This document shows, in pieces, positions 1 to 59,558 of a DNA stretch of 64,000 nt (position 1 is the first letter of the stretch; every line of letters starts with the position of its first letter). Location of the stretch: positions 416-64,415 of the forward strand of contig JBBTUV010000003.1 of NCBI GenBank assembly GCA_038063535.1, in the 5' to 3' direction. The notes under the pieces are model-generated. The model worked only from the letters and a program-made list of their open reading frames with translations, had not been told where the DNA came from and did no database searches. This DNA is from Patescibacteria group bacterium. GTDB lineage: Bacteria; Patescibacteriota; Minisyncoccia; Phycocordibacterales; UBA9973. The position numbers were made by a program, and so were the translations under genes.

Positions 1-366
1 ATTGGCGAAAATATTGCCGCAAAGTTTCTCATGAAACATGGTTTCTCCATATTGGACAGAAACTACACAAAGAAATGGGGAGAAATAGACATCGTGGCTG
101 AAAAGGAGCAGAAGCTTTATTTTATCGAGGTTAAATCAGTAGTTAAGGATACAATGGACCAGGTTTCACAAGAAACATTGGACCAATACAGGCCAGAGGA
201 TAACATGCATCCCTGGAAACTGAAACGTCTTTCGAGAGCCATCCAAACATATATCTTGTCTAAGAAATTAGACGAAAAAGATTGGCAATTCGACCTCATA
301 GCTGTCTTTTTGAGCCCAAAGGACAAGAAGGCCAGGGTGAAGGTAGTGAGTGATATAGTTCTGTGA
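1..366 (+). CDS. YraN/UPF0102 family endonuclease-like protein (5' partial, runs off window start)
   Basis: Frame is open from nt 1 (IGENIAAKFLMKHGF...). The GEIDIVA...YFIEVK motif matches the YraN family. Confidence 0.6.
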   Translation: MGENIAAKFLMKHGFSILDRNYTKKWGEIDIVAEKEQKLYFIEVKSVVKDTMDQVSQETLDQYRPEDNMHPWKLKRLSRAIQTYILSKKLDEKDWQFDLIAVFLSPKDKKARVKVVSDIVL

Positions 367-382
367 TATAAATAAAGCCCGG

Positions 383-453
383 CGGGCTGTAGTATACCGG
401 TAGTACACGTGCTTTGGGAGCATGTAGACTGGGTTCGATTCCCAGCAGCCCGA
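383..453 (+). tRNA. tRNA-Pro (anticodon TGG)
   Basis: Hand-folded cloverleaf. Acceptor CGGGCUG/CAGCCCG, T-arm CUGGG-UUCGAUU-CCCAG, anticodon loop UUUGGGA. CCA not encoded. Confidence 0.7.
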
Positions 454-454
454 C

Positions 455-862
455 ATGACAGCATTTGCATTACTTTTTACGCTTTCGGCGATTGGAATTA
501 GCGAGACGGTATATCTCATCCGCACACGGATTGCGGCGGAGCAGCCGGTCTGCCCGATCGGGGAGGGTTGCGCCACGGTACTTACCAGCAAATACAGTAA
601 GATTTTCCTGATCCCGAATGATATTCTCGGGCTTCTGGCTTACGTAGTGATTTCTTTTATCGCGGCACTCTTGGTGCTTGAAATTAATGTCGATCTTTGG
701 AGCCTCATAATAAAAATCCTGGTTGGGGCAGCATCACTCGTATCATTATTCTTCACATATCTTCAATGGCGGGAAATCCGGGCCTGGTGTTTTTGGTGCC
801 TGATGTCGGCGTTTACAATTTGGCTGATGGGAATTATAATAATTTTTAGCTCTGTAATATAG
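455..862 (+). CDS. vitamin K epoxide reductase (VKOR) family thiol-disulfide oxidoreductase
   Basis: Polytopic membrane protein with loop Cys pair (CPIGEGC) and active-site CFWC at a TM start. ATG lies 1 nt after the tRNA-Pro discriminator. Confidence 0.75.
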   Translation: MTAFALLFTLSAIGISETVYLIRTRIAAEQPVCPIGEGCATVLTSKYSKIFLIPNDILGLLAYVVISFIAALLVLEINVDLWSLIIKILVGAASLVSLFFTYLQWREIRAWCFWCLMSAFTIWLMGIIIIFSSVI

Positions 863-864
863 AA

Positions 865-1239
865 ATGAGCAAAACTGCATTTCACATTTTAAGAGTGGGG
901 CTCGCGATAACCTTCCTTTGGATCGGCATACTCATCTTGAAACAACCGGAGGCCTGGGCAAGCTACATTGCGCCCTGGGCGGCCGGGCTCCTGCCGGTTT
1001 CGCCCGTAGAAGCGATGCAGGGAACCGCGGTTCTTGATTTGGCAATCGGCCTTCTGCTTCTCACTGACACTTGGGTGTGGCTCGCGGCACTGATAGGAGC
1101 ACTTCACCTCATCACTGTGCTTGCGGTTTCGGGAATTACGGATATTACCGTGCGGGATATTGCGATTTTTGCGGGCGCGGTCGCGCTCTTCGTCGAGACG
1201 CGACCGAAAAATTTATTAATTAAACAAAAAACAATATGA
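865..1239 (+). CDS. DoxX family membrane protein
   Basis: About 4-TM small hydrophobic protein with DoxX-like N-terminus (LRVGLAITFLWIGILIL). Tightly coupled to VKOR. Confidence 0.55.
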   Translation: MSKTAFHILRVGLAITFLWIGILILKQPEAWASYIAPWAAGLLPVSPVEAMQGTAVLDLAIGLLLLTDTWVWLAALIGALHLITVLAVSGITDITVRDIAIFAGAVALFVETRPKNLLIKQKTI

Positions 1240-1739
1240 GCAAGTCAACAGTTATGGTTTTAATTTTGGTCATCGTTTTGGTCGGGGGGTATTTTATTTT
1301 CAGCAGCCCGAAGGCGACAGCGCCGACTCCTGAGACAAATACCCAGGACACGGAAACACCGGGTGAACCAGTTTCCCCGACATCGGAAATGCCCGTTCCG
1401 GGCGGCACCGTTCCGGAAATGACGGTAGAACATACGGTAACTTACACTAATAGCGGCTATTCGCCGAGCGAACTTAAGATAAAGGAGGGGGAGACAGTCA
1501 CCTGGGAGAACGAGAGTACGCAGAACATGTGGACGGCCTCCGCGATGCACCCGACGCACACAGCTTACAGCGGGACTTCTCTCTCCGCGCACTGCCCGGA
1601 CACTGAAAATGTCGCTTTCGACGCTTGTGAGGGCACTCTTCCGGGAGAGTCTTGGTCCTTCACCTTCACAAAGGCCGGTAGCTGGGGCTATCATGACCAC
1701 CTACATCCGACACTCTTCGGGAAAGTTATCGTTGAATAA
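1236..1739 (+). CDS. membrane-anchored cupredoxin-like domain protein
   Basis: N-terminal TM anchor and Pro/Thr-rich linker. C-terminal beta-sandwich-like domain with GETVTWENES and His/Cys cluster (AMHPTH..HCPD..GYHDHLHP). Confidence 0.4.
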   Translation: MSKSTVMVLILVIVLVGGYFIFSSPKATAPTPETNTQDTETPGEPVSPTSEMPVPGGTVPEMTVEHTVTYTNSGYSPSELKIKEGETVTWENESTQNMWTASAMHPTHTAYSGTSLSAHCPDTENVAFDACEGTLPGESWSFTFTKAGSWGYHDHLHPTLFGKVIVE

Positions 1740-1784
1740 AATTAAAATTTAGGCTATAAACTATTGCGGGCATTGCTCCGCAAT

Positions 1785-1858
1785 GCGGGATTAGTTTAAT
1801 GGTAAAATATCAGTTTTCCAAACTGAGGTTGGGAGTTCGATTCTCCCATCCCGCACCA
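1785..1858 (+). tRNA. tRNA-Gly (anticodon TCC), CCA encoded
   Basis: Acceptor GCGGGAU/AUCCCGC, anticodon loop UUUCCAA, T-loop UUCGAUU. The encoded CCA shares its A with the ATG of the next CDS. Confidence 0.8.
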
Positions 1859-2595
1859 TGATTTATTTATACGCATTCGGAAGTGTGATTCTGGTGAGTC
1901 TCATTTCACTGGTCGGGATTTTTGTGCTCACTTTTAAAGAAGAGTGGGTACGCAAATATATTTTTTTTCTAGTAAGTCTCGCGGTCGGCGCGCTCTTGGG
2001 CGATGCCTTTATTCACCTAATCCCGGAGGCCTTCGAAGAAGGAATTTCGTCGGCGGGGCTCTTCGTCACTGTTGGCATCCTTATCTTTTTTATCTTTGAA
2101 AAATTTATGCACTGGCACCACCACGGTGCGGACGTAGAAGAGCCGGAAATTCACCCGGTTGGCAAGCTTGTTCTTTTCTCTGATGGGGTTCACAACTTCA
2201 TTGACGGGATAATCATTGGCGTTTCCTACATGGTGAGTATTCCCCTTGGGCTCGCGAGCACGCTCGCAGTTGTTCTGCACGAAATCCCGCAGGAGATCGG
2301 CGACTTTGCCGTGCTCCTCCACGCCGGCTACGCCAAGAAGCGAGCGCTCTATCTTAACTTTCTGTCGGCCGCAGCGGCGATCGCCGGAACTCTTTTGGCA
2401 TTTATTCTCGGGGAAGGCGGTAAGGAGCTCGCCGCCTGGGTTCTGCCATTTGCCGCCGGGGGTTTCATCTACATCGCTATGAGCGATCTCATCCCGGAAC
2501 TTCATAAAACAAAAGAGCTGAAGCACTCTTCACTTCAGCTGGTTGCGGTTCTTATCGGAATTCTCGCGATGCTCGCACTCACGCTTTTAGAGTAG
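1858..2595 (+). CDS. ZIP family metal (zinc) transporter
   Basis: ZupT/ZIP signature HNFIDG and HEIPQEIGDF. About 8 TM segments and a His-rich loop (HWHHHG). Confidence 0.85.
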   Translation: MIYLYAFGSVILVSLISLVGIFVLTFKEEWVRKYIFFLVSLAVGALLGDAFIHLIPEAFEEGISSAGLFVTVGILIFFIFEKFMHWHHHGADVEEPEIHPVGKLVLFSDGVHNFIDGIIIGVSYMVSIPLGLASTLAVVLHEIPQEIGDFAVLLHAGYAKKRALYLNFLSAAAAIAGTLLAFILGEGGKELAAWVLPFAAGGFIYIAMSDLIPELHKTKELKHSSLQLVAVLIGILAMLALTLLE

Positions 2596-3908: not shown

Positions 3909-6900
3909 TTAGGCTGCCATTTTGGGCCTCTCTAGGACTCTTAGATTGTATTTCTCCTGGACACTTTTCTTTATCGTGCCGTCCTTATTCAGAAATTTAG
4001 CTCCCAAATAATCGTGGATCTCTGAATCGAGATTCACTTGTGTACCTCGTATAAAAGCGAGCGTTTGTGGATAAGTATTGCGGCATTGCGGTCTCCCGTT
4101 CTCATAGTCCATAACAGCAAGGAGCATGCTCATGTATCCCGAATCGATCTTTTTGTTCGCCTTTGCCATCGCTTTTACCAGCTCCGGGAGTTTGCGCCGA
4201 TTCACCACCGCTTCGGCGAACAGCTTAAAGTCTATTTTGAATTTTTCCTGAAGAGCTTTGAGAACCCGCCGTTCTGGACCATATGCTCGGTTGGAAAAAT
4301 CGAGAGTTCCGCCGGCTTCGCGATAGGCTTCCAATGCAAGATCTTCAGTGACTGCCTCATTGAGAGCTCTGCCTCTTTCTTTCAGATCCGGCATATTTGC
4401 ATTTCTTCCGATGTATCTAGTCAGCCTCAAGCCGGTGCGACGAGATGTGTAAGTCTTTTGCTCTTTGTCCTCCGTCTCAAATCCCCAATAGTTATTGGCA
4501 ACAGAATCGTGAATCACTTCATGGGAAATGGTGTGAAGAAGAGAATCTTCAAGTGCATCTGGTTCTAAGGTCTCAAGCATATTCATGTTAATGAAGATTT
4601 CCCCTTCCTCAACGATACAAATCCCTGCCGCTTCGACAAATCCACGGTTCGCCATAAATTCATAGAGTCCTACTAAGTGAACTTTCCCGGACGGAGGCAT
4701 CGGGCTGCGATTTTCCCCACCATACTTTTTCATCAAGGCCTCGACATTTTGGTATGCTTTTTCGACGATTTTAGTGTATTTTTCTTTGGTCTCGGCACTC
4801 TCATACTTTTTTCGGTCCGCAAGGATTCTGAATTCCACGTAATCAGCCGCTTCGCGTGCCGAGGGAGCAGCATTGATCTTCTCAAGATCTTCTCGAAGCC
4901 ACACAGTGAAAGGACTTCTGATCATCCTCTCGGCGATTTCTCTGGGTTCGGGGAAAACGTGTTCAGCCGGGTAACGCTCTCCCAGGTCTTCCTCGCCCTC
5001 CAAGGTTTGGCTCCGGCTTGCGATGGAAGCCTTTTCCTTGTATTTTCCTGGTGGAATAGGTTGGGGAGGAAGAACATCAGACTCCTTGCTCCATTCTTTT
5101 GCTTTTTCTTCGAAAGTTTTGCGGCCAAAACCTTTCGCCTCGCCGGTCCCTTTGTAGTCTTCCAGCGCCTTACGTGGGAAAATCGGAATAAAGGACGGAA
5201 GTTCCCAATCTCTATCGACAACTCTGTGGAAAGTGTACTCATGTTTTTCAATAAGCCCGGGAGTGAATTTTTGCCCCACATCGGTCGCGATTGGAGTATA
5301 TTTTCCATCTTCGTCGGCAATAACTGCTTCCAGAAATCCAGGATGGGTCAGTCGGCCACTGGCATCTTTTCCAAAAAGAGAATACAAGCTCTCCGGGATT
5401 ATCGGTTTTCCATCTGCCCCCATTTCTATCACGATTCCTTCATGCTGATTTCCGGTATCAGGAGTAAAGAGTAATTTAATTTTTCCTTCACTCATCAGCG
5501 TGGCAATGTCGGGATGTCGAGAACCCTGAAAAGATTCGAATTGCTTCAAATTGCTTAAATCAATCGCGGGGTGCCCTTGTTCGTCAAAGCCAGTGCTGTT
5601 TACTCCGCCATAGTGAAGCCTAAGTTCGTTTAAATCCGGACGAGTAGTTTCGTTCATCAAATGAGCGTGGCGATGAATTTCCTGCAATTGCTCCGCGTAG
5701 GAATGACGATTTGCTTGTAAATATTCTTCGATGCTCCCGGCAGGAATTTTTGTACCATGATGTTCAAGAGAAAGGCCCAGTTGTTCTACCGAAAGATTCA
5801 AGATTTTGCCATCTTTTCCTTGAATTATTTCCTTCACTAGAACTTCGTGAGTTCTTGAATCAACCAAGGAGCTGGTTCCGTTCGTGTTTTCGATTATCTC
5901 GGTTCCTTGAGGAGCGCGGATTGTCGCAAGGTCGTTGTGGAGTGGGGCGTAAGCGTGAGAAAGATCGGTGGGAACTTCCTGGCCACTTCGCTCGCCTCGG
6001 AAATAATGCCAGAGTCGCTGTATAGATGTTTCCCCTCCGTTTCGTGGATGGATTCCTGTCTTATCAAGCCCTTCCTGGACAACCGCCCCTATTCCAGCAC
6101 CAATTATTCCGCCTACCACGGCCGCCTTGCCCATTTCCTTTGCCCTAAATTTACCAAGCTCTTTATTCACTCCGCCGATCCCTTCATTGAGAACCGCCAT
6201 TCTTTCGGCAAGAGAAGTTTGAAATGCCGCGAGGTCTTTTATCTGCACTTTTGTTTCAGCGAGAATCCTCATAAGCTCGAGGCGGCTTTGGCTAAGCACT
6301 TTTTCCCCTTCGTACTCTATAAGATCAAGCCCGTCAGTTTCAGAAATGGACATTCTGGCTTCCGCATCGGCGGTTTCCTCGATGAGCTGTCTTAATGCTT
6401 CTGGATTTCCCATCCGCGCTTGATTGGAAAGTTCGATCAGCCGATCCTTGATCTCGGATGCAAGACGCATGTCGTAGACGAAGCGCTCCATCGCCTCGCG
6501 ATTTTTTCTTTTCCCTTTTTTGTTTTCGAACTCGGAGATGTCTCGTCCCATTGCTCGCTCCATGCGGTGGGTTGCTACGTCAACTTTTATATCTTTTGAT
6601 CTGCGTAAGGCCCCGAAAAGCGCTCCTGCGCCAAGTGCTCCCCCTAAGAAGTACACCGGTTTCTTGGCAAAATAGGCAGCGACCGAAAGCCCCGCCGCAA
6701 GCCCGGTCGGGGAGAAGAGGTGCGCGAGAACCCTATGTTTTTGGGTACGCTCGATGATCTTGTCGATAAATCCCAAGTTCTGTTCGGTTTTGACAACGCG
6801 CTTCGCATTCCCGAGATCGACTGCAAGTCCTGCGTCGAGGCGGGCGAGTCCCTCGCCATGCTCGGCGAGTTTTCGGAATTCGCGTGCTGCTTCTAGAAAA

Positions 6901-7697
6901 TTATCCGCAGAGAGATGTCCCGGCCCAAAAGAATCGGGGTGTTTTTCGTTTACCTTACGCAAGATCTCGTGCTTTTTTTTCGTAAATTCCTCGTCAGCCA
7001 TTTTGCCGAGAGCATATTCGCGCATGAGATCGATAATAGCCTTGTTGAACTCCGGGTCTTCCAATGTTTTTTTGCTTTCACCTCCAGTGGCCCGGAATAA
7101 ATCCTCCTGGAACCTTTCAAACTCCGCGCGCATTTCCCGCTCGTGTTCTGCTTTCTTTTCCGGGTCGGCAAAGATGTTCTCCTCTCCTTTGATCCGAGCA
7201 AGTTCCTGGGCGTAGTAGCGGCGTCGATAAAATTCTTCGGCGGGGCGATACCAAAGTTTTTTGAAAAAACTGACGACCCCTTTTCTGCTTAGAACTTCAT
7301 TTACCCGTTCAGTGGCCCTTTGCTTTGCCAGTTGCTCTGCAATGTCAGAAACATCTACCGCTAAAAGCCGTTCGGGCACATGAAATTCTTTTTTTCCTTT
7401 TTCCTCTTTCTTATCGTCTGGTTCCTCTTCTTTTTCTTGCTTTTTCTTTTCCTCTTTTACATCCTTTAAATCTTCGATTTCTGCTTTCTTGGAGTTTATA
7501 TTATCGAGCTCTTCTTCGAGCTTGCGATATTCTTTTTTTGCTTTCTCGAGTTGGTTCCAAAGGTTGGCTTTTGCCTCCTTTTCCATTTCAAAATTGTACC
7601 CCTCTTCAAGGTTGTGGATGTTTTCCTTTAATTCCTTGTATTTAGAGAGGAGGTCGGCTTCTTTATTAGTTGGTTGTAGGCTTTCCCTCATAGCCAA
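3909..7697 (-). CDS. large hypothetical protein (1262 aa): N-terminal Lys/Glu-rich coiled coil, central Gly-rich TM segments, C-terminal region with HExxH motif
   Basis: Long uninterrupted ORF. Charged coiled-coil N-terminus. Hydrophobic GxxxG-type segments (LAAGLSVAAYFAKKPVYFLGGALGAGALFGAL; VVGGIIGAGIGAVV). HEVIHD motif near the C-terminus. No recognisable family. Confidence 0.6.
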   Translation of the reverse strand: MAMRESLQPTNKEADLLSKYKELKENIHNLEEGYNFEMEKEAKANLWNQLEKAKKEYRKLEEELDNINSKKAEIEDLKDVKEEKKKQEKEEEPDDKKEEKGKKEFHVPERLLAVDVSDIAEQLAKQRATERVNEVLSRKGVVSFFKKLWYRPAEEFYRRRYYAQELARIKGEENIFADPEKKAEHEREMRAEFERFQEDLFRATGGESKKTLEDPEFNKAIIDLMREYALGKMADEEFTKKKHEILRKVNEKHPDSFGPGHLSADNFLEAAREFRKLAEHGEGLARLDAGLAVDLGNAKRVVKTEQNLGFIDKIIERTQKHRVLAHLFSPTGLAAGLSVAAYFAKKPVYFLGGALGAGALFGALRRSKDIKVDVATHRMERAMGRDISEFENKKGKRKNREAMERFVYDMRLASEIKDRLIELSNQARMGNPEALRQLIEETADAEARMSISETDGLDLIEYEGEKVLSQSRLELMRILAETKVQIKDLAAFQTSLAERMAVLNEGIGGVNKELGKFRAKEMGKAAVVGGIIGAGIGAVVQEGLDKTGIHPRNGGETSIQRLWHYFRGERSGQEVPTDLSHAYAPLHNDLATIRAPQGTEIIENTNGTSSLVDSRTHEVLVKEIIQGKDGKILNLSVEQLGLSLEHHGTKIPAGSIEEYLQANRHSYAEQLQEIHRHAHLMNETTRPDLNELRLHYGGVNSTGFDEQGHPAIDLSNLKQFESFQGSRHPDIATLMSEGKIKLLFTPDTGNQHEGIVIEMGADGKPIIPESLYSLFGKDASGRLTHPGFLEAVIADEDGKYTPIATDVGQKFTPGLIEKHEYTFHRVVDRDWELPSFIPIFPRKALEDYKGTGEAKGFGRKTFEEKAKEWSKESDVLPPQPIPPGKYKEKASIASRSQTLEGEEDLGERYPAEHVFPEPREIAERMIRSPFTVWLREDLEKINAAPSAREAADYVEFRILADRKKYESAETKEKYTKIVEKAYQNVEALMKKYGGENRSPMPPSGKVHLVGLYEFMANRGFVEAAGICIVEEGEIFINMNMLETLEPDALEDSLLHTISHEVIHDSVANNYWGFETEDKEQKTYTSRRTGLRLTRYIGRNANMPDLKERGRALNEAVTEDLALEAYREAGGTLDFSNRAYGPERRVLKALQEKFKIDFKLFAEAVVNRRKLPELVKAMAKANKKIDSGYMSMLLAVMDYENGRPQCRNTYPQTLAFIRGTQVNLDSEIHDYLGAKFLNKDGTIKKSVQEKYNLRVLERPKMAA

Positions 7698-7699
7698 TT

Positions 7700-8020
7700 T
7701 TATTTAACTATGCCCAAATATGTATCTCTAAACGACATCATCGCCTGAGAAAATAATTCTTGGGCATTTGGAAAGTTCGTTGATATAAATTGGTTTACTT
7801 TCTCTTGGTCTCCCCCTTCTGTGATTTCCCGGAAGGAAGTTAATTTGTTTTCATCTAGGTTAGAAACAACTGTAGCCAGAAAACGATCTTCGAGGCGATT
7901 TTTAAGATCCGCGAACATTTGAGACCGCACTTCCGGAGAAACATTGTCCATACCGGCTTCGCTGAGCATTTTATTAAGAAATTCGTCTATTACTTTTTGC
8001 GAACTGAGTTCTGTTAGCAT
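7700..8020 (-). CDS. hypothetical small protein (106 aa), co-oriented and abutting the 1262-aa gene
   Basis: ORF with its stop 2 nt upstream of the large gene start. No TM segments and no known motif. Confidence 0.4.
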   Translation of the reverse strand: MLTELSSQKVIDEFLNKMLSEAGMDNVSPEVRSQMFADLKNRLEDRFLATVVSNLDENKLTSFREITEGGDQEKVNQFISTNFPNAQELFSQAMMSFRDTYLGIVK

Positions 8021-11877: not shown

Positions 11878-14361
11878 ATGATTTTTAAAAATCAAAAAAT
11901 ACAAAAGTTTCTTGCCGCACTGGTCTTGGTGGCGATTTTGGCAACTCCCATGATGATTCCGAGGAAAGCCGATGCTCTTTTTGGAGTCGGGGATATTTCC
12001 TTCGATCCCGCCGTCTTTTTGAACACCCTAGTGAGCAAAATTCAAGACGTCATTAAGCTAAAAATAAAATTCAAAGAAATTCTCAATGAGATTTTAAACA
12101 AAATTTCAAAGAAGATTGCGATGCGCGCGCTTACCAGGATGACCGAAAGCACGGTGACCTGGATAAACAGCGGCTTCCACGGCAAGCCCTTATTCTTACA
12201 AAACCCGGATACCTTTTTCGGCGACATTACCAAATTTGAAATCAGAAAGCTGGTGGATGTTTACGGCTACAACTCTTCCCGATATCCGTTCGGCAAGCAG
12301 TGGTCACTGGACGTTATCAACGCATACAAGGGCCGACTTCAAAACAACGCCTCATACAGCTTGAGTAATCTAATTCAAGATGAAGTATATTTAAACAGCT
12401 ATCGCTCGAACTTCGCAGTCGGCGGCTGGAATGGATTTCTTCTGCAAACTCAGTACCCGGAAAACAACTATATCGGCTTTACCATGCTTGCGAATGAAGA
12501 GCTGGCTCGCAGGCTCAACACCGACCCTAATGCAAACAACGAGATCGGAAAAGTAAAAACGACTCTGCAGCAAGGCTTAGGCTTCCTTTCCCCGCAGACT
12601 TGCAGTTCGAACCCGGGCCTGACTCGAAACCCATACGCTCCTCCTGATTTTAAATTTAACGAAGAGTATAAACCTCCGGAGGTATTTAGTAGGGAAAGTT
12701 ATATGAAAACGGACGCGAACACAGGCCTTCGCGTTCCCGATGATGCGGCTTACCTAGCAGATGTAGCGGCTAAAAGATTGTATGATAGTGGATACAACTC
12801 AAGAAAAGGAATCTCGCAAATTAACTGGACGAATAACAATACTTGCACGGGCGGATGGGTAAATACTACTCCCGGTTCGGTGGTGGCTGGCAAGATCACC
12901 GAGGCACTTAACGTCCCAGAAAACCAGACCGGTTGGAAGGCGGTGATCGGAGGGAGTCTCGCATCGATCTTTGATTCGCTCTTAAACAAATTCCTCGGTT
13001 CGGGCTTGGACGCCCTGGCAAGCAAGATCAACCCGCCGGCGGAGAAACCCGACAACTGGGACTACCTCGGCAATACTCTAGGAAGTCCGGCTACATATAA
13101 CCCATATAACGACAGCCCATTCGGCGGGCCGGATGAAGTTATAGTGCTTGACGAATTCAAGACAGCAGTAGATCAGGGGATTGCCGCAACTCGGGAAGAG
13201 CTCGCACTTCTCGATAACCCGAATTCAATCCAATACGGCGCGATTCAATACCTCTCCGCCATCTGGCCAAAAGTGCGTCAGCTCGACATTTGCCTGCCGG
13301 GCCCGAACTACAAATGGGAAGAAAGGTTCGATGAAGATATAAGGAACACGAGCATGAACTGGAATAAAAAAGCGAAAGATGATGGGGAAAAATTGCGGGA
13401 GGTCGGAGTAATCATCAAAGAGCTTCAATTTGCCGCCGATTTCTTCAAAGATTGGATTCGCAATCAAATGATAACGTCACTTCCGAGCGCTTTCTTTTTC
13501 CTAGATACGATTAACGAAACCGAAGCGAACGATACCCTCGTCATGGAGATAGTCAACGCAAAGAGACTTAAGGCTAAAGCCCTTCCCGCTCTTATTGCGA
13601 TCCAGGGAGCGCTCAATTCAGAAGAATTCAACGTTCAGCCCGAAGCAGGGACCCCGGCAGAAAAAAGACTTATAGACTTAAAAAAACAGTACAATATCAT
13701 TGCATATTCAATCTCAAACTCCGACACGATCGAGGAGGCTCGCGCGCAACTCAAAAGTTTAATTAATAAACTGTCAGACTTAAACAGTCTCACCGCCCAG
13801 TGTGCGACTGAAAGAAAAAACTCTCCTGACAAATGGAACCTTGTCGCCAATTGGGACGATCCTTATGGAACGAAGAGTTTTAAGGCGAGTGAAAAAGGAA
13901 AAAACATAAGAGTAAACGCTGTCAGAAAATCTGACGGGGTTTACTCAAGCATTATAATGAACTATACAACTAGTGGAACTGAACGGGAGCAGTTCTGTTC
14001 CCTTCCAGTGCTAAACGGGTATACCCATGAGATGTTTGTAAATGCGATGGACCCAAGAGAGGGGGGAACCAATGTCATATACCCTGAAATTCCTCGGGTC
14101 GCTGGCGCGATAAGAACTGAAACGGTGGGCAGTTCCGTGATTCTTTTTAACTGTAACGATATTTTCCGCTCTTACCCGCTCGACTACAAAGGAAACATTC
14201 CGGGCCAGCTGACGATTGACCCACCACCACCAGCCGACCCACTTATCGATAGTACGCCAGACGGCGGAACACCGCCGCCGGGGACACCATGCGACCCGGC
14301 GACTGACCCGAGCTGTGTGCCAGCCGGTTGTGGTGGCACGGGACAGATCGCGTGCACGTAG
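11878..14361 (+). CDS. large secreted protein (827 aa), T4SS-like cluster, Pro/Cys-rich C-terminal tail
   Basis: Signal peptide-like N-terminus. No known domains. C-terminus is PPPPADPLIDSTPDGGTPPPGTPCDPATDPSCVPAGCGGTGQIACT. Start is 2 nt after the previous stop. Confidence 0.6.
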   Translation: MIFKNQKIQKFLAALVLVAILATPMMIPRKADALFGVGDISFDPAVFLNTLVSKIQDVIKLKIKFKEILNEILNKISKKIAMRALTRMTESTVTWINSGFHGKPLFLQNPDTFFGDITKFEIRKLVDVYGYNSSRYPFGKQWSLDVINAYKGRLQNNASYSLSNLIQDEVYLNSYRSNFAVGGWNGFLLQTQYPENNYIGFTMLANEELARRLNTDPNANNEIGKVKTTLQQGLGFLSPQTCSSNPGLTRNPYAPPDFKFNEEYKPPEVFSRESYMKTDANTGLRVPDDAAYLADVAAKRLYDSGYNSRKGISQINWTNNNTCTGGWVNTTPGSVVAGKITEALNVPENQTGWKAVIGGSLASIFDSLLNKFLGSGLDALASKINPPAEKPDNWDYLGNTLGSPATYNPYNDSPFGGPDEVIVLDEFKTAVDQGIAATREELALLDNPNSIQYGAIQYLSAIWPKVRQLDICLPGPNYKWEERFDEDIRNTSMNWNKKAKDDGEKLREVGVIIKELQFAADFFKDWIRNQMITSLPSAFFFLDTINETEANDTLVMEIVNAKRLKAKALPALIAIQGALNSEEFNVQPEAGTPAEKRLIDLKKQYNIIAYSISNSDTIEEARAQLKSLINKLSDLNSLTAQCATERKNSPDKWNLVANWDDPYGTKSFKASEKGKNIRVNAVRKSDGVYSSIIMNYTTSGTEREQFCSLPVLNGYTHEMFVNAMDPREGGTNVIYPEIPRVAGAIRTETVGSSVILFNCNDIFRSYPLDYKGNIPGQLTIDPPPPADPLIDSTPDGGTPPPGTPCDPATDPSCVPAGCGGTGQIACT

Positions 14362-14370
14362 AGTTTTAGA

Positions 14371-16830
14371 TTGAACTTTATGAACTTGAGGAACTTTAAA
14401 AATTTTATAACTCCGCTCCTTCTCTTCTCAATCGCCTTGAGCATGTTCGCTGTGCCAGTAGGAACAAATTTAGAGAAAAATACAGCCCTTGCTGCAGAAT
14501 GTACTGGAGTGGATGGGAATGGGAATCCTGTTCCTGCTGGATGCACTCTTCCTCTTGGCACATGCACTTATACATTCAACGGGGAAACAAAAACAGGGAG
14601 GGTAACTGAACAATATTGTAAAAGTCCGGCTGGGTACAATAATACTTCTTTGGGATACCAGTTCGTGAGTTGGGTAAAATCGGGAAACCAAAACGCTGCT
14701 CCCTTGGCGGATCCGGCAAATGAAGCACTCGCAAACGCAGAAAATCAAAAAAAACCTGGACTGGAAGGTGAGCTTCAAGAATGCGGATTTGGGTTCAAGG
14801 GTTCCATCTTCCCCGGATGTTTTCAGCAGCTTAGTTACATTCTTTTTGTAACGGTCCCGTCTTTTTTGATGGGGGTAACCGCCAATTTTTTTAATTTCAT
14901 GGCGGCGCTGACGCTGACATCTGATTTATACAATAGTGGGTTCATAGCCCAAATCTGGAAAGTTGTGCGTGACTTCGCAAATATATTCTTTATCCTCATT
15001 CTTCTTTATGCCGCCTTTAGTATTATCTTAAATCTTGGGCATGGTGGAGGAAAGAAAATTATAGCGAACGTGATAATCATCGCGCTCCTTGTGAACTTCA
15101 GCCTATTCATGGCAAGGGTTGTCATAGACGCCTCTAACATCGTCGCTCTCATTTTTTACAACCGAGTTGAAGTGCAATGCGCTGATGGGACAGATTCCTG
15201 TTACAAAAGAATCATAAATAAGGATGGCGCAAAAGTACAGGACAAAGACATGGCTGGTGCCCTTGTTTCGCCATACAAAATTACAACTTTTTTTAGTGAT
15301 GACACAATTAAGAATTTAAAGGCTGCTATTAACAAGGACACTACGGGCCAAGTAGAATCGGGTTCTGGGCAGACTCTCGGTAAATTGACCCCGTATTTTA
15401 TTATAGGGATAATGATAGCCTATGGATTGGTAGCCTTCGCGCTGACTTATGCATTTCTAGTCGCAGGTCTCGCATTCCTAGTAAGGATTATCAACCTCAT
15501 CATGCTGATGGTCGTGGCTCCCTTTGCTTTTGTTTCTTTTGCAGTACCAAAATTCAGGAGCATCGATACGATCGGCTTTGATAGCTGGATAAAAAAGCTT
15601 TTCGAGTCAGCTTTTGTCGCTGCAATATTTATCTTTATCCTTTACATAATTTCTCAAGTCCTTAAAGCTGATATATTTGCGACTTATGCCACCGAAAATC
15701 CGGGAGGGGGGTTCTTCCGAGCTCTGCTTCTTGTTTTTATCCCGGCAATTCTCGTCGTCATCATGCTACTCAAAGGCGCGAAGTATGCAAAGAAAGCCTC
15801 TGGCGAATTCACCGGAGCGATCATCGGCGGAGCGAAAATGCTTGGCGGTGCTGCACTTGGTGCTGGACTGGGAGTTGCAGCGCTGGCTGGCACGCAAACT
15901 TTAGGAAGGGCTGGGATGGCTGCCGCGAATAGTGATAAATTGCGAAAAGACGCAATCGAAGGAAAAGGTTTTGCAAAGATCAGGGCAAAAGCACTATTGG
16001 GAGCGGGGAATTTCCTAGGCAAGAGAAGCTACGACGTCCGCCAAGTTGGCTTGGCGAAGACTGCCGCCGGCAAGGCTGGAATTAAGCTCGCAGACAAAGG
16101 ATTGGGGGCGCTTGGGACTAAATCTTTTGAAAAAGGAAGAAGGGGGCAAATAGAGCGTAAAATTGAAAAGAATGAGGAAAAAATCACGCAGACAGTGCTA
16201 CTAACCCGCGCTGCTGCCAATGCGCAAGATAACAGGGCAGCACAAGCGAAGGCTCAAAACATTCGTGCGGCCCAATACGAAACAGATAAAGAAAAAGCCA
16301 GCAAGAGTCCTAGTGGAGCGAAAAACCCGTTTTTCGATGAATCAGAATTCCGAGCGGCTTACGAGAAAGAACACGGAAGCGTCGATAAAGTCGAACCTGT
16401 GAAAACAGCAGCAGATGTGAATAAAGAACGTAGGGAAGCCTTCGCAATTAGTCTGCAAGAAGGCGGGGTCTTGAAACAAATTATGCGGGGAATTGGAAAA
16501 ATGATTCCGGTTGGCGCGGGGACAGTAGCGACAGGAGCGGTGGCCGGTTCAATCGGAGCGGGGGCACTGGCCGGAGGAATGCTAATGGTTGGGGGAGGAG
16601 TTCTAATGGCGATAAAATCGGGAATAGACAAACTTGATAGAACTACGGCAGAAGTAGCGGCGGCGGCAAGAAAAGGTCCAACCGACTTCCAGAAATTAAT
16701 TAAGGAGGTCACAAAAATGAAAGAAGGGGGAGAAAAAGGTACCGAAAAACTAGGGGGAGAAATTAAAAAGGCTGAAGAGGAACACAAAAAAGAACATGAA
16801 GAGGAGGGACATGAGGAAAAGGGGCATTAA
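14371..16830 (+). CDS. VirB6/TrbL-like polytopic membrane protein with long Ala/Gly/Lys-rich C-terminal extension
   Basis: N-terminal signal/TM, Cys-containing extracytoplasmic domain, at least 6 hydrophobic TM segments in the middle, low-complexity charged C-terminus. Architecture typical of VirB6/TcpH/PrgH-type proteins. Confidence 0.55.
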   Translation: MNFMNLRNFKNFITPLLLFSIALSMFAVPVGTNLEKNTALAAECTGVDGNGNPVPAGCTLPLGTCTYTFNGETKTGRVTEQYCKSPAGYNNTSLGYQFVSWVKSGNQNAAPLADPANEALANAENQKKPGLEGELQECGFGFKGSIFPGCFQQLSYILFVTVPSFLMGVTANFFNFMAALTLTSDLYNSGFIAQIWKVVRDFANIFFILILLYAAFSIILNLGHGGGKKIIANVIIIALLVNFSLFMARVVIDASNIVALIFYNRVEVQCADGTDSCYKRIINKDGAKVQDKDMAGALVSPYKITTFFSDDTIKNLKAAINKDTTGQVESGSGQTLGKLTPYFIIGIMIAYGLVAFALTYAFLVAGLAFLVRIINLIMLMVVAPFAFVSFAVPKFRSIDTIGFDSWIKKLFESAFVAAIFIFILYIISQVLKADIFATYATENPGGGFFRALLLVFIPAILVVIMLLKGAKYAKKASGEFTGAIIGGAKMLGGAALGAGLGVAALAGTQTLGRAGMAAANSDKLRKDAIEGKGFAKIRAKALLGAGNFLGKRSYDVRQVGLAKTAAGKAGIKLADKGLGALGTKSFEKGRRGQIERKIEKNEEKITQTVLLTRAAANAQDNRAAQAKAQNIRAAQYETDKEKASKSPSGAKNPFFDESEFRAAYEKEHGSVDKVEPVKTAADVNKERREAFAISLQEGGVLKQIMRGIGKMIPVGAGTVATGAVAGSIGAGALAGGMLMVGGGVLMAIKSGIDKLDRTTAEVAAAARKGPTDFQKLIKEVTKMKEGGEKGTEKLGGEIKKAEEEHKKEHEEEGHEEKGH

Positions 16831-16846: not shown

Positions 16847-17404
16847 ATGGACGAAGAAACAATAAAAAAAATAAAGGAAAGATACGACATGTTGCCAGAG
16901 AGCATCAAGGAAATTATCATGTCTTCGAATTATCAAGATACTCTGATTGAGCTTGGCAAAAAATATAACCTCAACGTGGGGCAACTTGGAATTCTCGAGC
17001 GAGAAACTACTATGGTGCTCATGGGACTCACCAATCCCGACAACTTTCAGACAGAGATTATCCGAGAGATGGATGTTGACGCGGAAAGAGGCAGACAGAT
17101 AGTCAAAGAGATTAATGAAGAAATTTTCGCGCGAATTAGAGACCTGCTCAAGTTGATGAACACGCCCCCGGGAGAAGAACCAAAGCTTGATGAGGAAACT
17201 CCTGCGCCGAGCCCGGAGATACTGAAGGCGGCAGGGGTTACCGCAGCTGCGCCGGATCTAAGTAAGCCCGAACTTCCGGCTGGGATGCTCGCGCAAAAAT
17301 TGTCCGGCTCGTTTCAAATTCCATCCGTCACCACTGATCACACGACACCGAATGTAACACCGGAAAAACCAAAGGTCGACCCATATCGAGAACCGCTGGA
17401 GTAG
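16847..17404 (+). CDS. hypothetical soluble protein in T4SS-like cluster
   Basis: ORF with coding-like composition, no TM segments, Pro-rich C-terminal half. Confidence 0.45.
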   Translation: MDEETIKKIKERYDMLPESIKEIIMSSNYQDTLIELGKKYNLNVGQLGILERETTMVLMGLTNPDNFQTEIIREMDVDAERGRQIVKEINEEIFARIRDLLKLMNTPPGEEPKLDEETPAPSPEILKAAGVTAAAPDLSKPELPAGMLAQKLSGSFQIPSVTTDHTTPNVTPEKPKVDPYREPLE

Positions 17405-17406
17405 CA

Positions 17407-17811: not shown

Positions 17812-17812
17812 C

Positions 17813-25115: not shown

Positions 25116-25331
25116 CTACTCGAGCGGGTCAAAGCGGTTTTTCTGCCACGGGTGACAGCGTAAAATTCTTCGAAGGGAAAGCCAAGCCCCTTTCCCCGCG
25201 CCGTATTTTTCGATCGCTTGTTTGGAGTATTCCGAACAGCTGGGGTAAAACACGCAGCTCGGGGGAAGAAAGGGAGAGATGCGCCTTTGGTAAAAACTAA
25301 TTGATTTTATGAAGAATGTCTTCAATATCAT
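25116..25331 (-). CDS. yidD: membrane protein insertion efficiency factor YidD
   Basis: YidD signature ([27 protein letters not shown]). 71 aa. Confidence 0.8.
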
Positions 25332-25623
25332 CTAAGAGAGCAGCCTCGCTGCCGGGTCTTTTTTTAAGTACCAGAACACCACGAAGTCCTTGGGGTAGCT
25401 TGTGAAAATGCGGGCCTATTGCCTGGTAACCCAAGCGGCGCAGAGAGTTGCGTTCGGTTGATTTCTTTGCGGTCTCCTTTGGGATAATAAAAGAAAATCT
25501 CGGGGGGTTATTATTGTCTTCAAAGATATACCGGAGGTAAATATCCCGGCCCTGGACTACGCGCCCGAACTTGAACGCTCGAGCTACATCCTTTTTTGAG
25601 TTTCTGTTTCTTTTCGGGAGCAT
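25297..25623 (-). CDS. rnpA: ribonuclease P protein component
   Basis: RnpA-like basic protein ([15 protein letters not shown]). ATG at 25623-25621 overlaps the rpmH stop (TGATG). Confidence 0.75.
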
Positions 25624-25757
25624 CAAACGGAAACCCGGGTTCTCCCCTTTTTTCTTCTCCGAGAGAGTACGCGACGTCCGGTTTTGCTCCGTGACCGAAC
25701 GAGGTAGCCGTGCGCCCTTTTTCGTTTCCTTTTCCTGGGCTGGTAAGTTTGGGACAT
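25623..25757 (-). CDS. rpmH: 50S ribosomal protein L34 (44 aa, absent from ORF track)
   Basis: Hand-translated minus-strand ORF: [44 protein letters not shown]. Canonical L34 sequence and canonical position upstream of rnpA. Confidence 0.85.
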
Positions 25758-54451: not shown

Positions 54452-55105
54452 TCAGCCGCCGTTGGGGGGGATGGTGGCGATGAAAGCCTTGGCATCGTTT
54501 CCGAGGGCTTTGATCCCTCGGTAGCCACCGTAGCCGACAGCGGCAAATCCCACGAGGCATGCTCCGAATTGGAGCGGCCCTCTAGTACACCAGGCGCCTC
54601 CTCCACCTTTCGGCACCGAGACCATTTGAAGGTTGGGCCGTTGCGTGGAATCGCGCACTGTCACGTCAACCTTGATGCCGATCTGGCCGGTAAAGACGTG
54701 AGTGGTGGTGTCGGAGCGGCGTCCAATGACTGCGATTGGCGGAGGAGCCGGAATTTGTTCCTGCGGTGCCGGGGTTTCGGGAATCACGAATCCCTTGGCG
54801 CCGTTCCCGCAATCCCAGCGTCTCGTAATGGTGGACCCCCTTGCCACCATTTTCGTACCGGTTGCTTGGGCGACGATTGCCCAGCGGCCGCCGGCAATCT
54901 CCATCTCTCCGCACTGACGTTGCTCCAGCGTGACGATGCGTTCCCCTTCCTTAAGCGGCTTATGGCCGCTGAGGAAGGAGGGAGTGTAAACTTCCGCAGA
55001 AGCCTCGCAGGCTTCCATAGAAGTGAACACCCCAGGGATCTGTTGTGCCTCGGCCCGGATAGAAACCAGGGCGAGCGCAACGAGCGCCAGGGTATTTCGC
55101 TTCAT
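54452..55105 (-). CDS. secreted hypothetical protein in GC-rich islet
   Basis: Classic signal peptide (MKRNTLALVALALVSIRAEA). Local GC clearly higher than surroundings. The overlapping plus-strand ORF was rejected. Confidence 0.55.
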   Translation of the reverse strand: MKRNTLALVALALVSIRAEAQQIPGVFTSMEACEASAEVYTPSFLSGHKPLKEGERIVTLEQRQCGEMEIAGGRWAIVAQATGTKMVARGSTITRRWDCGNGAKGFVIPETPAPQEQIPAPPPIAVIGRRSDTTTHVFTGQIGIKVDVTVRDSTQRPNLQMVSVPKGGGGAWCTRGPLQFGACLVGFAAVGYGGYRGIKALGNDAKAFIATIPPNGG

Positions 55106-55220: not shown

Positions 55221-55292
55221 TGACCCCATCAGGAATCGAACCTGAATTACAAGATCCGCAATCTTGCGTTCTATCCGTTGAACTATGGGGCC
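55221..55292 (-). tRNA. tRNA-Arg (anticodon GCG)
   Basis: Reverse complement folds as tRNA. Acceptor GGCCCCA/UGGGGUC, D-arm GUUCAACGGAUAGAAC, anticodon stem CAAGA/UCUUG with loop UUGCGGA, T-loop UUCGAUU. Confidence 0.7.
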
Positions 55293-55806: not shown

Positions 55807-55815
55807 TGCTACAAT
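55807..55815 (+). promoter_or_regulatory. extended -10 element TGcTACAAT about 15 nt upstream of tRNA-Ser
   Basis: TGnTACAAT at 55807-55815. Candidate promoter for the tRNA-Ser-ruvX-pilMNO transcript. Confidence 0.35.
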
Positions 55816-55830: not shown

Positions 55831-55915
55831 GGAGGCGTCGCATAGTGGTTTAGTGCACCTGTCTTGAAAACAGGAGTGTCGAAAGGCACCGTGAGTTCGA
55901 ATCTCACCGCCTCCG
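55831..55915 (+). tRNA. tRNA-Ser (anticodon TGA), long variable arm
   Basis: Acceptor GGAGGCG/CGCCUCC, anticodon stem CCUGU/ACAGG with loop CUUGAAA, long variable arm, T-arm GUGAG-UUCGAAU-CUCAC, discriminator G. Confidence 0.8.
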
Positions 55916-55918
55916 CCC

Positions 55919-56272
55919 ATGAGATTTTTGGGCATTGATTATGGAGCAAAAAGAATAGGGATAGCGCTTTCTGACGAAGGGGGGAAGCTTGCCTTTCCGC
56001 GGGAGATCTTGCCGAACGACTCGAAAGTCTTTGAGAAACTTGAGGGCATAATTCGAGATGAGGGTGTAGCGGAAATAGTTATCGGAGAAACAGATTTGAT
56101 TTTGAGGGAGACCGAAATATTTCGGGAGCAACTGGCTCAAAGATTTGGAATAGCGGTGAGGAGGCAAAAAGAAGAATTGACAACCCGGGAGGCACGACGC
56201 TACCAAGGGGGAGTTGCCGACGCACGGGCGGCCGCGCTCATTCTGCAGCGATACTTGGACAGAAAAACCTGA
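55919..56272 (+). CDS. ruvX: Holliday junction resolvase-like protein RuvX/YqgF
   Basis: N-terminus MRFLGIDYGAKRIGIALSD is canonical YqgF. ATG begins 3 nt after the tRNA-Ser discriminator. Confidence 0.85.
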   Translation: MRFLGIDYGAKRIGIALSDEGGKLAFPREILPNDSKVFEKLEGIIRDEGVAEIVIGETDLILRETEIFREQLAQRFGIAVRRQKEELTTREARRYQGGVADARAAALILQRYLDRKT

Positions 56273-58455: not shown

Positions 58456-58758
58456 ATGAAACTAGCGTTCAAGAAAAAGGAAAAAGTTTTCAGGAAAGGC
58501 GGTTTTCATACCAATCCCGACATCGGCTGGGAAGTTGTTCTATACTTTAATTTTGCCTTGATCATCGGCGGATTCGTCTTCGGGTATTTCCTGTGGGGAA
58601 AGGTGAATGAAGAATATGTTCTGCCTCCAAACATCAGCAACGAGAGAAAAGCCGAAGAGGCACAAATAGCAAAGGCACTCGAGTACTTTTCCGAGCGGGG
58701 GAAAAAATCCGCCGAGATCCTGAAGGCTCCTTCTCCTTTCGTTGACCCCTCGAAGTAA
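58456..58758 (+). CDS. small single-TM hypothetical protein downstream of pilO
   Basis: ORF tightly coupled (3 nt) to pilO. One TM helix. Confidence 0.4.
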   Translation: MKLAFKKKEKVFRKGGFHTNPDIGWEVVLYFNFALIIGGFVFGYFLWGKVNEEYVLPPNISNERKAEEAQIAKALEYFSERGKKSAEILKAPSPFVDPSK

Positions 58759-58778
58759 AAATGTTATTTTGACCTTGC

Positions 58779-58851
58779 GCGCGCTTAGCTCAGTTGGTAG
58801 AGCGACTCGTTTACACCGAGAAGGTCGGGGGTTCAAGTCCCTCAGCGCGCA
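58779..58851 (+). tRNA. tRNA-Val (anticodon TAC)
   Basis: Acceptor GCGCGCU/AGCGCGC, D-arm GCUCAGUUGGUAGAGC, anticodon loop UUUACAC, T-loop UUCAAGU. Confidence 0.75.
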
Positions 58852-58855
58852 CCCC

Positions 58856-58927
58856 GCTCCCGTAGTTCAATGGATAGAACAGGGCTCTTCTAAGGCCTCG
58901 ATGTGGGTTCGATTCCTACCGGGAGCG
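58856..58927 (+). tRNA. tRNA-Arg (anticodon TCT)
   Basis: Acceptor GCUCCCG/CGGGAGC, D-arm GUUCAAUGGAUAGAAC, anticodon loop CUUCUAA, T-loop UUCGAUU. Lies 4 nt after tRNA-Val. Confidence 0.75.
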
Positions 58928-58928
58928 C

Positions 58929-59558
58929 ATGAAATTTAAAATTCTCTACGAAGATGAAGATTATCTCGCGATAGACAAGCCCTCGGGTATTGAAGTTTTA
59001 GATTTGGCAGAAAAATATTTCCCTGAGAAAATTTTAGCGCATCGATTAGATACAGGAACGAGCGGAGTGCTAGTCCTTGCGAAAAGCGAAAAAGTGCGCG
59101 AATTTCTCAAGAAGCAATTTCAGAAGCGCGAAGTTAAGAAAATATATAATGCGATAGTTAACGGCTGGCCGAAGAATGATCGTGGAGTAGTGGATAAGCC
59201 GATCGGGCGGAGCCCGGTGGATTTTAGAAGAAGACTTGCCGGTCGGGGAGTAAAAGGAAAGATCAGGGAGGCGACCACAGAATACAAAGTACTTAAAAGA
59301 TTTGAAGAAGGTGGAAATAAATTCACACTGGTCGAAGTAAAACCCAAAACCGGCCGGACGCACCAGATCCGCGTGCATATGAAGTTCGCAAATTACCCCG
59401 TGGCCTGCGATCCGCTCTACAATCCTGGCAAACCCTGCCCGAAGGGTATTGAGCGCTTGGCTCTCCATGCGAAGTCTGTAGAGTTTAAAAATCTCTCCGG
59501 CAAAACCATCAAAGTGGAATCGCCTCTACCTAAAGAGTTTCAAAGAGTATATATTTAA
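58929..59558 (+). CDS. RluA family pseudouridine synthase (short)
   Basis: Catalytic motif HRLDTGTSGVLVLAKS. ATG begins 1 nt after the tRNA-Arg discriminator. Confidence 0.8.
   Translation: MKFKILYEDEDYLAIDKPSGIEVLDLAEKYFPEKILAHRLDTGTSGVLVLAKSEKVREFLKKQFQKREVKKIYNAIVNGWPKNDRGVVDKPIGRSPVDFRRRLAGRGVKGKIREATTEYKVLKRFEEGGNKFTLVEVKPKTGRTHQIRVHMKFANYPVACDPLYNPGKPCPKGIERLALHAKSVEFKNLSGKTIKVESPLPKEFQRVYI

Follow-up and report, generated by a model that had tools for sequence, protein, structure and literature searches.

In a 64,000-nucleotide (nt) stretch of the genome of a Patescibacteria group bacterium (assembly GCA_038063535.1, contig JBBTUV010000003.1, positions 416 to 64,415), which we call the window and in which positions are counted from the first base, four protein-coding genes begin 1–3 nt past the discriminator base of a transfer RNA (tRNA) gene on the same strand. 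The explanation that best fits everything computed here is that each of these tRNAs would be transcribed together with the gene behind it, and that processing of the tRNA would leave a leaderless messenger RNA (mRNA). Judged from sequence alone, this reading has in our estimate a probability of about two in three. The window is part of a 291,722-bp Patescibacteria contig from Hainich groundwater (0.1 µm fraction, ENA ERZ1292624). In the proposed mechanism, a promoter just upstream of the tRNA would drive one transcript containing first the tRNA and then the coding sequence (CDS), and an endonuclease would mature the tRNA 3' end by cutting at the discriminator or 1 nt past it. The cut would free the downstream RNA with its AUG at the 5' end or within 0–3 nt of it, the ribosome would initiate on the released RNA by the leaderless route, and the CCA-adding enzyme would complete the tRNA. 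Of these steps, we infer the co-transcription, where and by which enzyme the RNA would be cut, and that the freed RNA would be translated.

The tRNA ends in the window were determined with two independent finders, ARAGORN and the Rfam tRNA covariance model, the latter of which ends its match at the discriminator. Seven tRNA genes were found by ARAGORN, and Rfam placed their discriminators at 453 (Pro), 1855 (Gly), 40791 (Lys), 55221 (Arg-GCG, minus strand), 55915 (Ser), 58851 (Val), and 58927 (Arg-TCT). The tRNAs and genes at the four junctions are as follows.

383..454, plus strand: tRNA-Pro(TGG); ARAGORN 383-454, Rfam 383-453 with 59.8 bits; discriminator A453, then C454.
455..862, plus strand: VKOR-family CDS, 135 amino acids (aa); ATG 1 nt past the discriminator; Pfam VKOR.
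1785..1858, plus strand: tRNA-Gly(TCC); ARAGORN 1785-1858, Rfam 1785-1855 with 71.5 bits; discriminator A1855, then CCA at 1856-1858.
1858..2595, plus strand: ZIP-family metal transporter CDS, 245 aa; its ATG and the CCA have one A in common.
55831..55917, plus strand: tRNA-Ser(TGA); ARAGORN, with Rfam 55831-55915; discriminator G55915, then CCC.
55919..56272, plus strand: RuvX/YqgF CDS, 117 aa; ATG 3 nt past the discriminator; Pfam RuvX.
58779..58853, plus strand: tRNA-Val(TAC); ARAGORN and Rfam; discriminator A58851, with CCCC (4 nt) up to tRNA-Arg(TCT).
58856..58928, plus strand: tRNA-Arg(TCT); ARAGORN and Rfam; discriminator G58927, then C58928.
58929..59558, plus strand: RluA-family pseudouridine synthase CDS, 209 aa; ATG 1 nt past the discriminator.

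The junction tRNAs scored 59.8–71.5 bits with Rfam against a gathering threshold of 29, and ARAGORN assigned an anticodon to each; they are bona fide tRNA genes and not tRNA-like relics. The junctions read A453-C-ATG455 (VKOR), A1855-CC-ATG1858 (ZIP), G55915-CCC-ATG55919 (RuvX), and G58927-C-ATG58929 (RluA), which corresponds to gaps of 1, 2, 3, and 1 nt between discriminator and ATG, and every gap nucleotide is a C. ATG is the start codon at all four junctions and at all confirmed junctions in relatives. The initial annotation, made from the letters of the window, had placed the VKOR ATG at 455, 1 nt past the tRNA-Pro discriminator at 453, and had noted that the arrangement recurs twice more; both observations stand, with ARAGORN and Rfam in agreement on the first and gaps of 3 nt (tRNA-Ser/RuvX) and 1 nt (tRNA-Arg(TCT)/RluA) at the other two. 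Its remark that a Shine-Dalgarno sequence has no room here was likewise borne out by both finders and by reading of the sequence, and the 1–3 nt between tRNA and start codon are too few for a promoter as well. Mis-called tRNA ends had been named as a way in which the arrangement could prove illusory, but the two finders agree on all four junctions.

Each junction ATG is the first start codon past the upstream in-frame stop among the open reading frames (ORFs) of the window. The Pfam matches reach the N-termini, with VKOR residues 6–128 covering profile positions 2–132 and RuvX residues 1–114 covering profile positions 1–133. In VKOR and ZIP, the first transmembrane helix begins at the N-terminus and the next Met codons lie far downstream, and the starts of both genes are identical in the public gene calls for the source contig. 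The N-termini of orthologues are conserved as far as the ATG. Starts at downstream Met codons, the other possibility raised at the outset, were ruled out by the Pfam coverage and the conserved N-termini. Because the tRNA ends were obtained by two methods, the starts are the only usable ones, Pfam covers the N-termini, and the public gene calls agree, we consider the coordinates first proposed for these junctions to be right.

The claim that every same-strand tRNA-to-CDS junction in the window is 3 nt or shorter proved to be overstated, because 115 nt separate tRNA-Arg(GCG) from the minus-strand ORF that follows it.

55221..55292, minus strand: tRNA-Arg(GCG); ARAGORN and Rfam; counter-example, with the next same-strand CDS 115 nt on.
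54452..55105, minus strand: secreted-protein-like ORF; its own promoter-like site at 55191-55164 and a GGGAGGGG Shine-Dalgarno sequence; no Pfam match.

The promoter-like site of this ORF reads TTGACT-16-TATGAT, and its N-terminus is signal-peptide-like. A plus-strand ORF at 54404–55159 was considered in its place and was ruled out by its composition and by its lack of a signal-peptide-like N-terminus. Since a convergent gene comes after tRNA-Lys and tRNA-Arg after tRNA-Val, the window contains five same-strand tRNA-to-CDS junctions, of which four abut. On the same contig, directly before the window, the distance is ∼112 nt from tRNA-Arg(TCG) to a UPF0102 gene and ∼10 nt from tRNA-Gly(GCC) to cca.

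To place these junctions in a wider context, related loci were collected. An RluA-based scan of species-representative genomes yielded 73 loci, almost all of them from Paceibacterota, Nomurabacteria, or Parcubacteria (i.e., Patescibacteria), and a ZIP-based scan of metagenomes yielded 80 more, giving 153 related loci (L002–L154; L001 denotes a stretch of the window's own contig that includes the upstream flank). Junction gaps were measured by masking the tRNA bodies, calling ORFs greedily, and taking the distance from the discriminator to the first ATG; the discriminators of the relatives' tRNAs were set by acceptor-stem pairing, with which Rfam agreed in 10 loci. These 153 loci contain 176 same-strand tRNA-to-CDS junctions, with gaps of 1 nt in 15 cases, 2 nt in 3, 3 nt in 4, and 4 nt in 2, i.e., 24 junctions at 1–4 nt. 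Gaps of 5–9 nt (8 junctions), 10–19 nt (9), and 20–29 nt (11) occurred at about one per nucleotide. Based on these counts, the density of junctions at a gap of 1 nt is at least 10 times that of the next 25 positions, and by this comparison of sequences abutment is far beyond chance. Statistics of tRNA-to-CDS distances, which the initial annotation had recommended as a genome-wide check, gave a sharp spike at 1 nt in these loci. The tRNA-to-CDS gaps have a bimodal distribution, spiking at a single nucleotide and dipping at 5–19 nt, and CDS-to-tRNA gaps in these loci are mostly ≥ 20 nt.

At least 11 tRNA/gene pairs abut, among them Pro-VKOR, Gly(TCC)-ZIP, Ser-RuvX, Arg(TCT)-RluA, Val(TAC)-RluA, and Val(GAC)-RluA, together with tRNA-His next to three different genes, Leu(GAG) next to a PCD-like gene, Glu next to a 234-aa gene, and Thr(CGT) next to a 289-aa gene. 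Because the abutting junctions span so many different pairs, they do not go back to one inherited event. In L086, which is syntenic to the window, the junctions read tRNA-Pro-A-ATG (VKOR) and tRNA-Gly-C-ATG (ZIP), and the Ser-RuvX junction was also found in L025 (gap of 1 nt) and L050 (gap of 3 nt). In at least 10 genomes, an RluA orthologue abuts tRNA-Arg(TCT), tRNA-Val(TAC), or tRNA-Val(GAC) with a gap of 1–6 nt. Orthologues with 47–68% protein identity retain the junctions, and different tRNAs stand before the same gene. As side observations, tRNAs at L075 9674–9744 and L084 9847–9917 were found by Rfam and missed by ARAGORN, and the additional tRNA in L084 lies 5 nt upstream of tRNA-Gly(TCC), at the place of the window's VKOR operon.

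The ZIP gene was compared across 78 orthologues. Five of them abut tRNA-Gly(TCC), with gaps of 1, 1, 1, 1, and 3 nt; a -10-like hexamer lies at -11 to -16 in 42, and a Shine-Dalgarno sequence was seen in only 2. This comparison suggests that either a promoter with transcription starting at the AUG or the 3' end of a tRNA sets the 5' end of the ZIP message, and such an alternation would be expected if the two were functionally equivalent. In the window, the junction reads A-CCA-TG, and the apparent CCA thus ends on the first base of ATG1858. It had been proposed that the ZIP start codon shares its A with an encoded CCA; the two do overlap in the sequence, but a functional encoded CCA is improbable. 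Of the five orthologues whose ZIP gene abuts the tRNA, four have the junction A-C-ATG, with no CCA, and L097 has A-CAC-ATG; an additional C in the window spells CCA by coincidence, and we judged the shared CCA to be incidental. A separate observation concerns L078 (3934–3966), where the letters ccgcacc, the final 7 nt ahead of the ZIP ATG, are identical to the 3' end of the window's tRNA-Gly plus CC (1845–1860). There they are preceded by a TATAAT box and not by a tRNA, and L099 has the same promoter without ccgcacc. The letters may be a relic of a swap from tRNA to promoter; since the promoter is common to L078 and L099 in the alignment, they may equally be a chance resemblance.

This organism, and Paceibacteria generally, appear from their upstream sequences to be rich in leaderless genes. 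Of 579 operon-first genes with an upstream spacer of ≥ 40 nt, taken from 70 related loci, 132 (23%) carry the hexamer TAnnnT with its first base at exactly -12 relative to the A of the ATG, against a background of ∼20 per position, and the Shine-Dalgarno core peaks at only ∼4% per position. A hexamer at -12 occupies the canonical position of the -10 box for transcription starting at that A. Among the 58 ORFs of the window, the box is at -12 in 10 and at -12 to -15 in 17, and a Shine-Dalgarno core is present in 3. Examples with the box at -12 include the ATGs at 8114, 16847, 20306, 25097 (minus strand), 32923 (minus strand), 41313 (minus strand), and 43537, and the divergent pair at 50566 (minus strand) and 50622 (plus strand). 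Given the frequency of the -12 box and the rarity of Shine-Dalgarno sequences, the organism would routinely translate mRNAs that begin with AUG. At the 17 junctions with gaps of ≤ 4 nt, however, TAnnnT was found at -12 to -15 from the ATG in none, and a Shine-Dalgarno core in one. The abutted genes would thus be leaderless through processing and not through transcription.

Promoter-like boxes were seen upstream of the tRNAs instead.

364..372, plus strand: extended -10-like box TGaTATAAA, read from the sequence, 10 nt upstream of tRNA-Pro; putative promoter element.
1755..1760, plus strand: -10-like box TATAAA, read from the sequence, upstream of tRNA-Gly; putative promoter element.
1764..1783, plus strand: hairpin TTGCGG-N8-CCGCAA, read from the sequence, between the TATAAA box and tRNA-Gly; putative 5' leader.
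55807..55815, plus strand: extended -10-like box TGcTACAAT, read from the sequence, upstream of tRNA-Ser; putative promoter element.
58742..58770, plus strand: promoter-like TTGACC-17-TATTTT with TG, from the promoter scan, ending 8 nt before tRNA-Val.

The TG of the box at 364–372 lies within the stop codon of the upstream UPF0102 gene, and this box was missed by a strict -35/-10 scan. With no signals inside the junctions and boxes upstream of the tRNAs, co-transcription of tRNA and CDS would be the only evident route of expression. The initial annotation had likened the arrangement to mitochondria, with tRNA-mRNA precursors that yield leaderless messages. The comparative data support the precursor and the leaderless message, but not long polycistrons: with what seems to be a separate promoter for each tRNA, the units are better described as tRNA-led operons than as demonstrated mitochondrion-like polycistrons. 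As for the hairpin at 1764–1783, an overlapping small stem was also listed by the scan, and the 5' arm TTGCGGGCAT resembles the 5' end of tRNA-Gly itself, ATGCGGGAT; the hairpin may form a structure in the leader or have arisen by partial duplication.

The base directly after the discriminator, position 74, bears on where the cut would fall. It is C in 259 of the 272 tRNA genes (95%) of Paceibacteria-type loci, in which the genomic C content is 19%; only 66 of the 272 (24%) encode the complete CCA, and the commonest dinucleotide at positions 74–75 is CA (148 of 272). Within the window, position 74 corresponds to 454, 1856, 40792, 55220 (minus strand), 55916, 58852, and 58928. The bias is not an artefact of the pipeline, because other lineages in the data set have T- or A-rich trailers, and it suggests an unusual rule of tRNA 3'-end maturation in this lineage. 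At the modal junction, N73-C74-AUG, cleavage behind C74 would place the AUG exactly at the 5' end; the canonical cleavage, behind N73, would leave a C-leader of 1–3 nt.

RNase P makes the 5' end of tRNAs only. Its protein subunit is encoded in the window.

25297..25626, minus strand: RNase P protein subunit (RnpA), the tRNA 5'-processing enzyme; Pfam Ribonuclease_P, E=1.6e-11.

Cleavage by RNase P or RNase Z had been suggested, and the part concerning RNase P has to be dropped, since the relevant cut is on the 3' side of the tRNA. A MazF-like cut at an ACA site (A73-C74-A of ATG) was rejected as a general rule, because the discriminator is G at tRNA-Ser and tRNA-Arg(TCT). In Propionibacterium acnes (P. 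acnes), which is rich in leaderless mRNAs and has no RNase Z, differential RNA sequencing (dRNA-seq) mapped endonucleolytic cuts between C74 and C75 (PMC3848588); these are a precedent for a cut after C74, not a proof of it. A gene for the CCA-adding enzyme lies on the same contig, 0.6 kb upstream of the window. A more specific form of the mechanism, which we put forward as a tentative possibility, is that in Paceibacteria-type Patescibacteria an endonuclease of their own would cut after the near-universal C74 and not after the discriminator, and that this cut would serve across the genome to generate leaderless mRNAs with an exact 5'-pAUG, as a bacterial counterpart of mitochondrial tRNA punctuation; cca would come under the same step.

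Several points weigh against the reading that tRNA processing releases the messages. Only ∼14% of the lineage's same-strand junctions abut, and genes led by a Shine-Dalgarno sequence are also present in this genome. The gap is not fixed at 1–4 nt, because there is a second class of 8–15 nt, of which cca is an example, and a further 10% of same-strand junctions have gaps of 5–19 nt, which are too short for a promoter; with such gaps, cca included, either an exact 5' AUG is not obligatory or extra trimming takes place. RNase Z was not seen in the ∼72 kb formed by the window and 8 kb of flank, an absence that is uninformative for the whole genome, and a scan of all loci for the HxHxDH motif gave one RNase Z candidate, in L121 of an unrelated lineage with T-rich trailers, and had no power here. 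Patescibacteria retain RNase J (PMC12641178), for which an mRNA with a 5'-monophosphate should be a good substrate. Finally, exonucleolytic 3' maturation would limit each transcript to a single product, the tRNA or the mRNA.

The cca gene itself always starts 8–15 nt past a same-strand, CCA-less tRNA, either Gly-GCC or Arg-TCG, in L001, L075, L076, L081, L084, L086, L097, and L099. In L001, it lies at 6230–7792, ∼0.4–2 kb upstream of the window, and past the tRNA its sole in-frame start is a TTG, at a distance of 10 nt from the discriminator. The public call begins at an ATG within the tRNA and overlaps it by 33 nt, which is probably an annotation error.

Mutually exclusive products form the rival that survives best, although we regard it as unlikely. 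Here, exonucleolytic or imprecise 3' maturation would turn each precursor into a tRNA or an mRNA, possibly as a form of regulation, or else the mRNA would be translated only while the tRNA is attached; abutment would then couple expression to the flux of tRNA processing and not simply create a leaderless mRNA. At the tRNA-Gly/ZIP junction, CCA and AUG share an A, so one molecule could not supply a complete encoded CCA and an intact AUG unless it were repaired; the products of several abutted genes act on RNA (RluA, RuvX/YqgF, TsaE, and cca); and the ∼72 kb without a visible RNase Z gene fit this view too. However, most junctions read N73-C-AUG without CCA and the genome encodes a CCA-adding enzyme, so a single endonucleolytic cut followed by CCA repair gives both products. 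We also know of no mechanism by which a ribosome initiates internally beside a folded tRNA without a Shine-Dalgarno sequence.

Somewhat less likely again is genome compaction only, in which a deletion bias would have removed the spacers, the short gaps would be functionally unconnected with tRNA processing, and the downstream genes would be poorly expressed or expressed by read-through. These genomes are very compact, with many CDS-to-CDS gaps of 1–4 nt or 4-nt overlaps, and in the window the stop codon of a convergent gene (41313–40792, minus strand) overlaps C74 of tRNA-Lys by 1 base (40791–40794), an instance of tight packing. The distances speak against compaction, however: apart from the usual 4-nt overlap, the CDS-to-CDS gaps of the same loci decay smoothly without a single-nucleotide spike, in contrast to the spike and trough of the tRNA-to-CDS gaps. 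So do the conservation of the junctions at the protein identities given above and the different tRNAs found before the same gene. The abutted genes also include the housekeeping genes RuvX, RluA, and TsaE, and a gene behind a tRNA has no ribosome upstream with which its translation could be coupled.

A promoter within the tRNA gene that starts transcription at the ATG and gives an ordinary leaderless transcript is very improbable; leaderless promoters are common in the lineage, but none of the 17 junctions has the -10-like hexamer at the right distance, and the stretch in question is the G+C-rich 3' strand of the acceptor and T-stem, e.g., CAGCCCGAC before ATG455. Mis-assigned start codons, with true starts downstream behind normal leaders, have nothing specific in their favor beyond the generic risk of ORF-based calls, and in view of the N-terminal evidence given above they can practically be dismissed.

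Our literature searches found no account of tRNA-abutted leaderless genes in bacteria or of leaderless expression in Paceibacteria, and the literature on Streptomyces, Mycobacterium smegmatis (M. smegmatis), and Gracilibacteria that looked promising contained nothing relevant. The punctuation of transcripts by tRNAs in animal mitochondria was reportedly described by Ojala, Montoya and Attardi in 1981. As in mitochondria, the tRNA genes of the window abut the first codon, tRNA excision would define the 5' end of the mRNA, and the messages would be leaderless with no Shine-Dalgarno sequence. Unlike mitochondria, this is the chromosome of a free-living or episymbiotic bacterium, a minority of genes is involved, the tRNAs appear to have promoters of their own, tRNAs do not obviously define where upstream mRNAs end, and no stop codon is completed by polyadenylation. 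The mRNAs are not flanked by tRNAs on both sides but punctuated on the 5' side only, and since the CDS-to-tRNA gaps are mostly ≥ 20 nt and the tRNAs have promoter-like boxes of their own, the analogy holds only for that side.

In the thrU-tyrU-glyT-thrT-tufB operon of Escherichia coli (E. coli), tRNAs and a protein gene share one promoter and transcript, but unlike here, a spacer of ∼100 nt and a normal Shine-Dalgarno leader follow the last tRNA. Plants are said to have dicistronic tRNA-small nucleolar RNA genes, reported by Kruszka in 2003, and Nanoarchaeum equitans has a dicistron of tRNA-Val and the C/D box small RNA sRNA8 that is cut by RNase Z (PMC3491384). Both resemble our junctions in that a functional RNA lies just downstream of a tRNA and its 5' end is made by tRNA 3' processing, there by RNase Z, but that RNA is a guide RNA in archaea and plants, and here it would be an mRNA in bacteria. 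The t-elements of plant mitochondria are tRNA or tRNA-like structures that define mRNA ends through RNase P and RNase Z (PMC1920247). The definition of mRNA ends by tRNA structures is common to both systems; t-elements, however, are often tRNA-like pseudo-structures and their mRNAs usually keep leaders, whereas the tRNAs here score highly and the AUG lies at the cut.

Leaderless mRNAs generated by promoters are known from Actinobacteria and Deinococcus (PMC4633059, PMC4007540, PMC3848588). With these, the messages proposed here would share a 5'-end AUG and the lack of a Shine-Dalgarno sequence, and at many genes of this lineage a -10 box lies 6–7 nt upstream. The tRNA-abutted genes differ in having no -10 box, and their 5' ends would arise by RNA cleavage and carry a monophosphate, whereas those of the Actinobacteria and Deinococcus mRNAs carry a triphosphate. 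MazF makes leaderless mRNAs in E. coli by cutting just 5' of the AUG, according to Vesper 2011 as cited in PMC3848588. As far as that citation goes, the similarity is that an endonuclease makes the leaderless mRNA post-transcriptionally just 5' of the AUG, and the difference is that MazF is a stress toxin with an ACA site that leaves a 5'-OH, whereas the site here would be defined by tRNA structure and used constitutively.

Should the mechanism be confirmed, bacteria would have their first example of tRNA excision as a routine source of translatable leaderless mRNAs, and a hallmark of mitochondrial expression would be linked to a large and poorly understood bacterial radiation. In ultra-small genomes, a strong tRNA promoter would serve housekeeping genes as well. 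The result also bears on tRNA 3' processing in Patescibacteria, given the contrast between the near-universal C74 and the rarely encoded CCA, and on annotation, because gene callers misplace starts beside tRNAs, as in the cca call described above.

The VKOR gene is followed by two further genes on the plus strand.

865..1239, plus strand: DoxX-like CDS, 2 nt past the VKOR stop; DoxX E=3e-4, below the Pfam cut-off; probably translationally coupled.
1236..1739, plus strand: cupredoxin-like CDS; its start overlaps the stop of the DoxX-like CDS (ATGA).

Elsewhere in the window, jag (R3H domain), yidC, and rnpA on the minus strand, followed by dnaA and dnaN on the plus strand (23899–28382), look like the neighborhood of a replication origin, with a spacer of 230 nt upstream of dnaA (25627–25855). 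A type IV secretion-like cluster at 16847–23906 contains a PrgI-family protein, a TraG/VirB4-like P-loop ATPase, a protein with a type IV secretion system pilin domain, and several ORFs without Pfam matches. Very large ORFs (1262, 827, 819, and 1148 aa) at 3909–7697 (minus strand), 11878–16830 (plus strand), and 50892–54338 (minus strand) have no significant Pfam domains and may encode lineage-specific surface proteins. Lastly, a perfect 16-nt palindrome, AGTTTCACGTGAAACT, lies at L001 8085–8100, ∼45–60 nt upstream of window position 1; it is operator-like, and its end lies 1 nt ahead of the UPF0102/YraN ATG.

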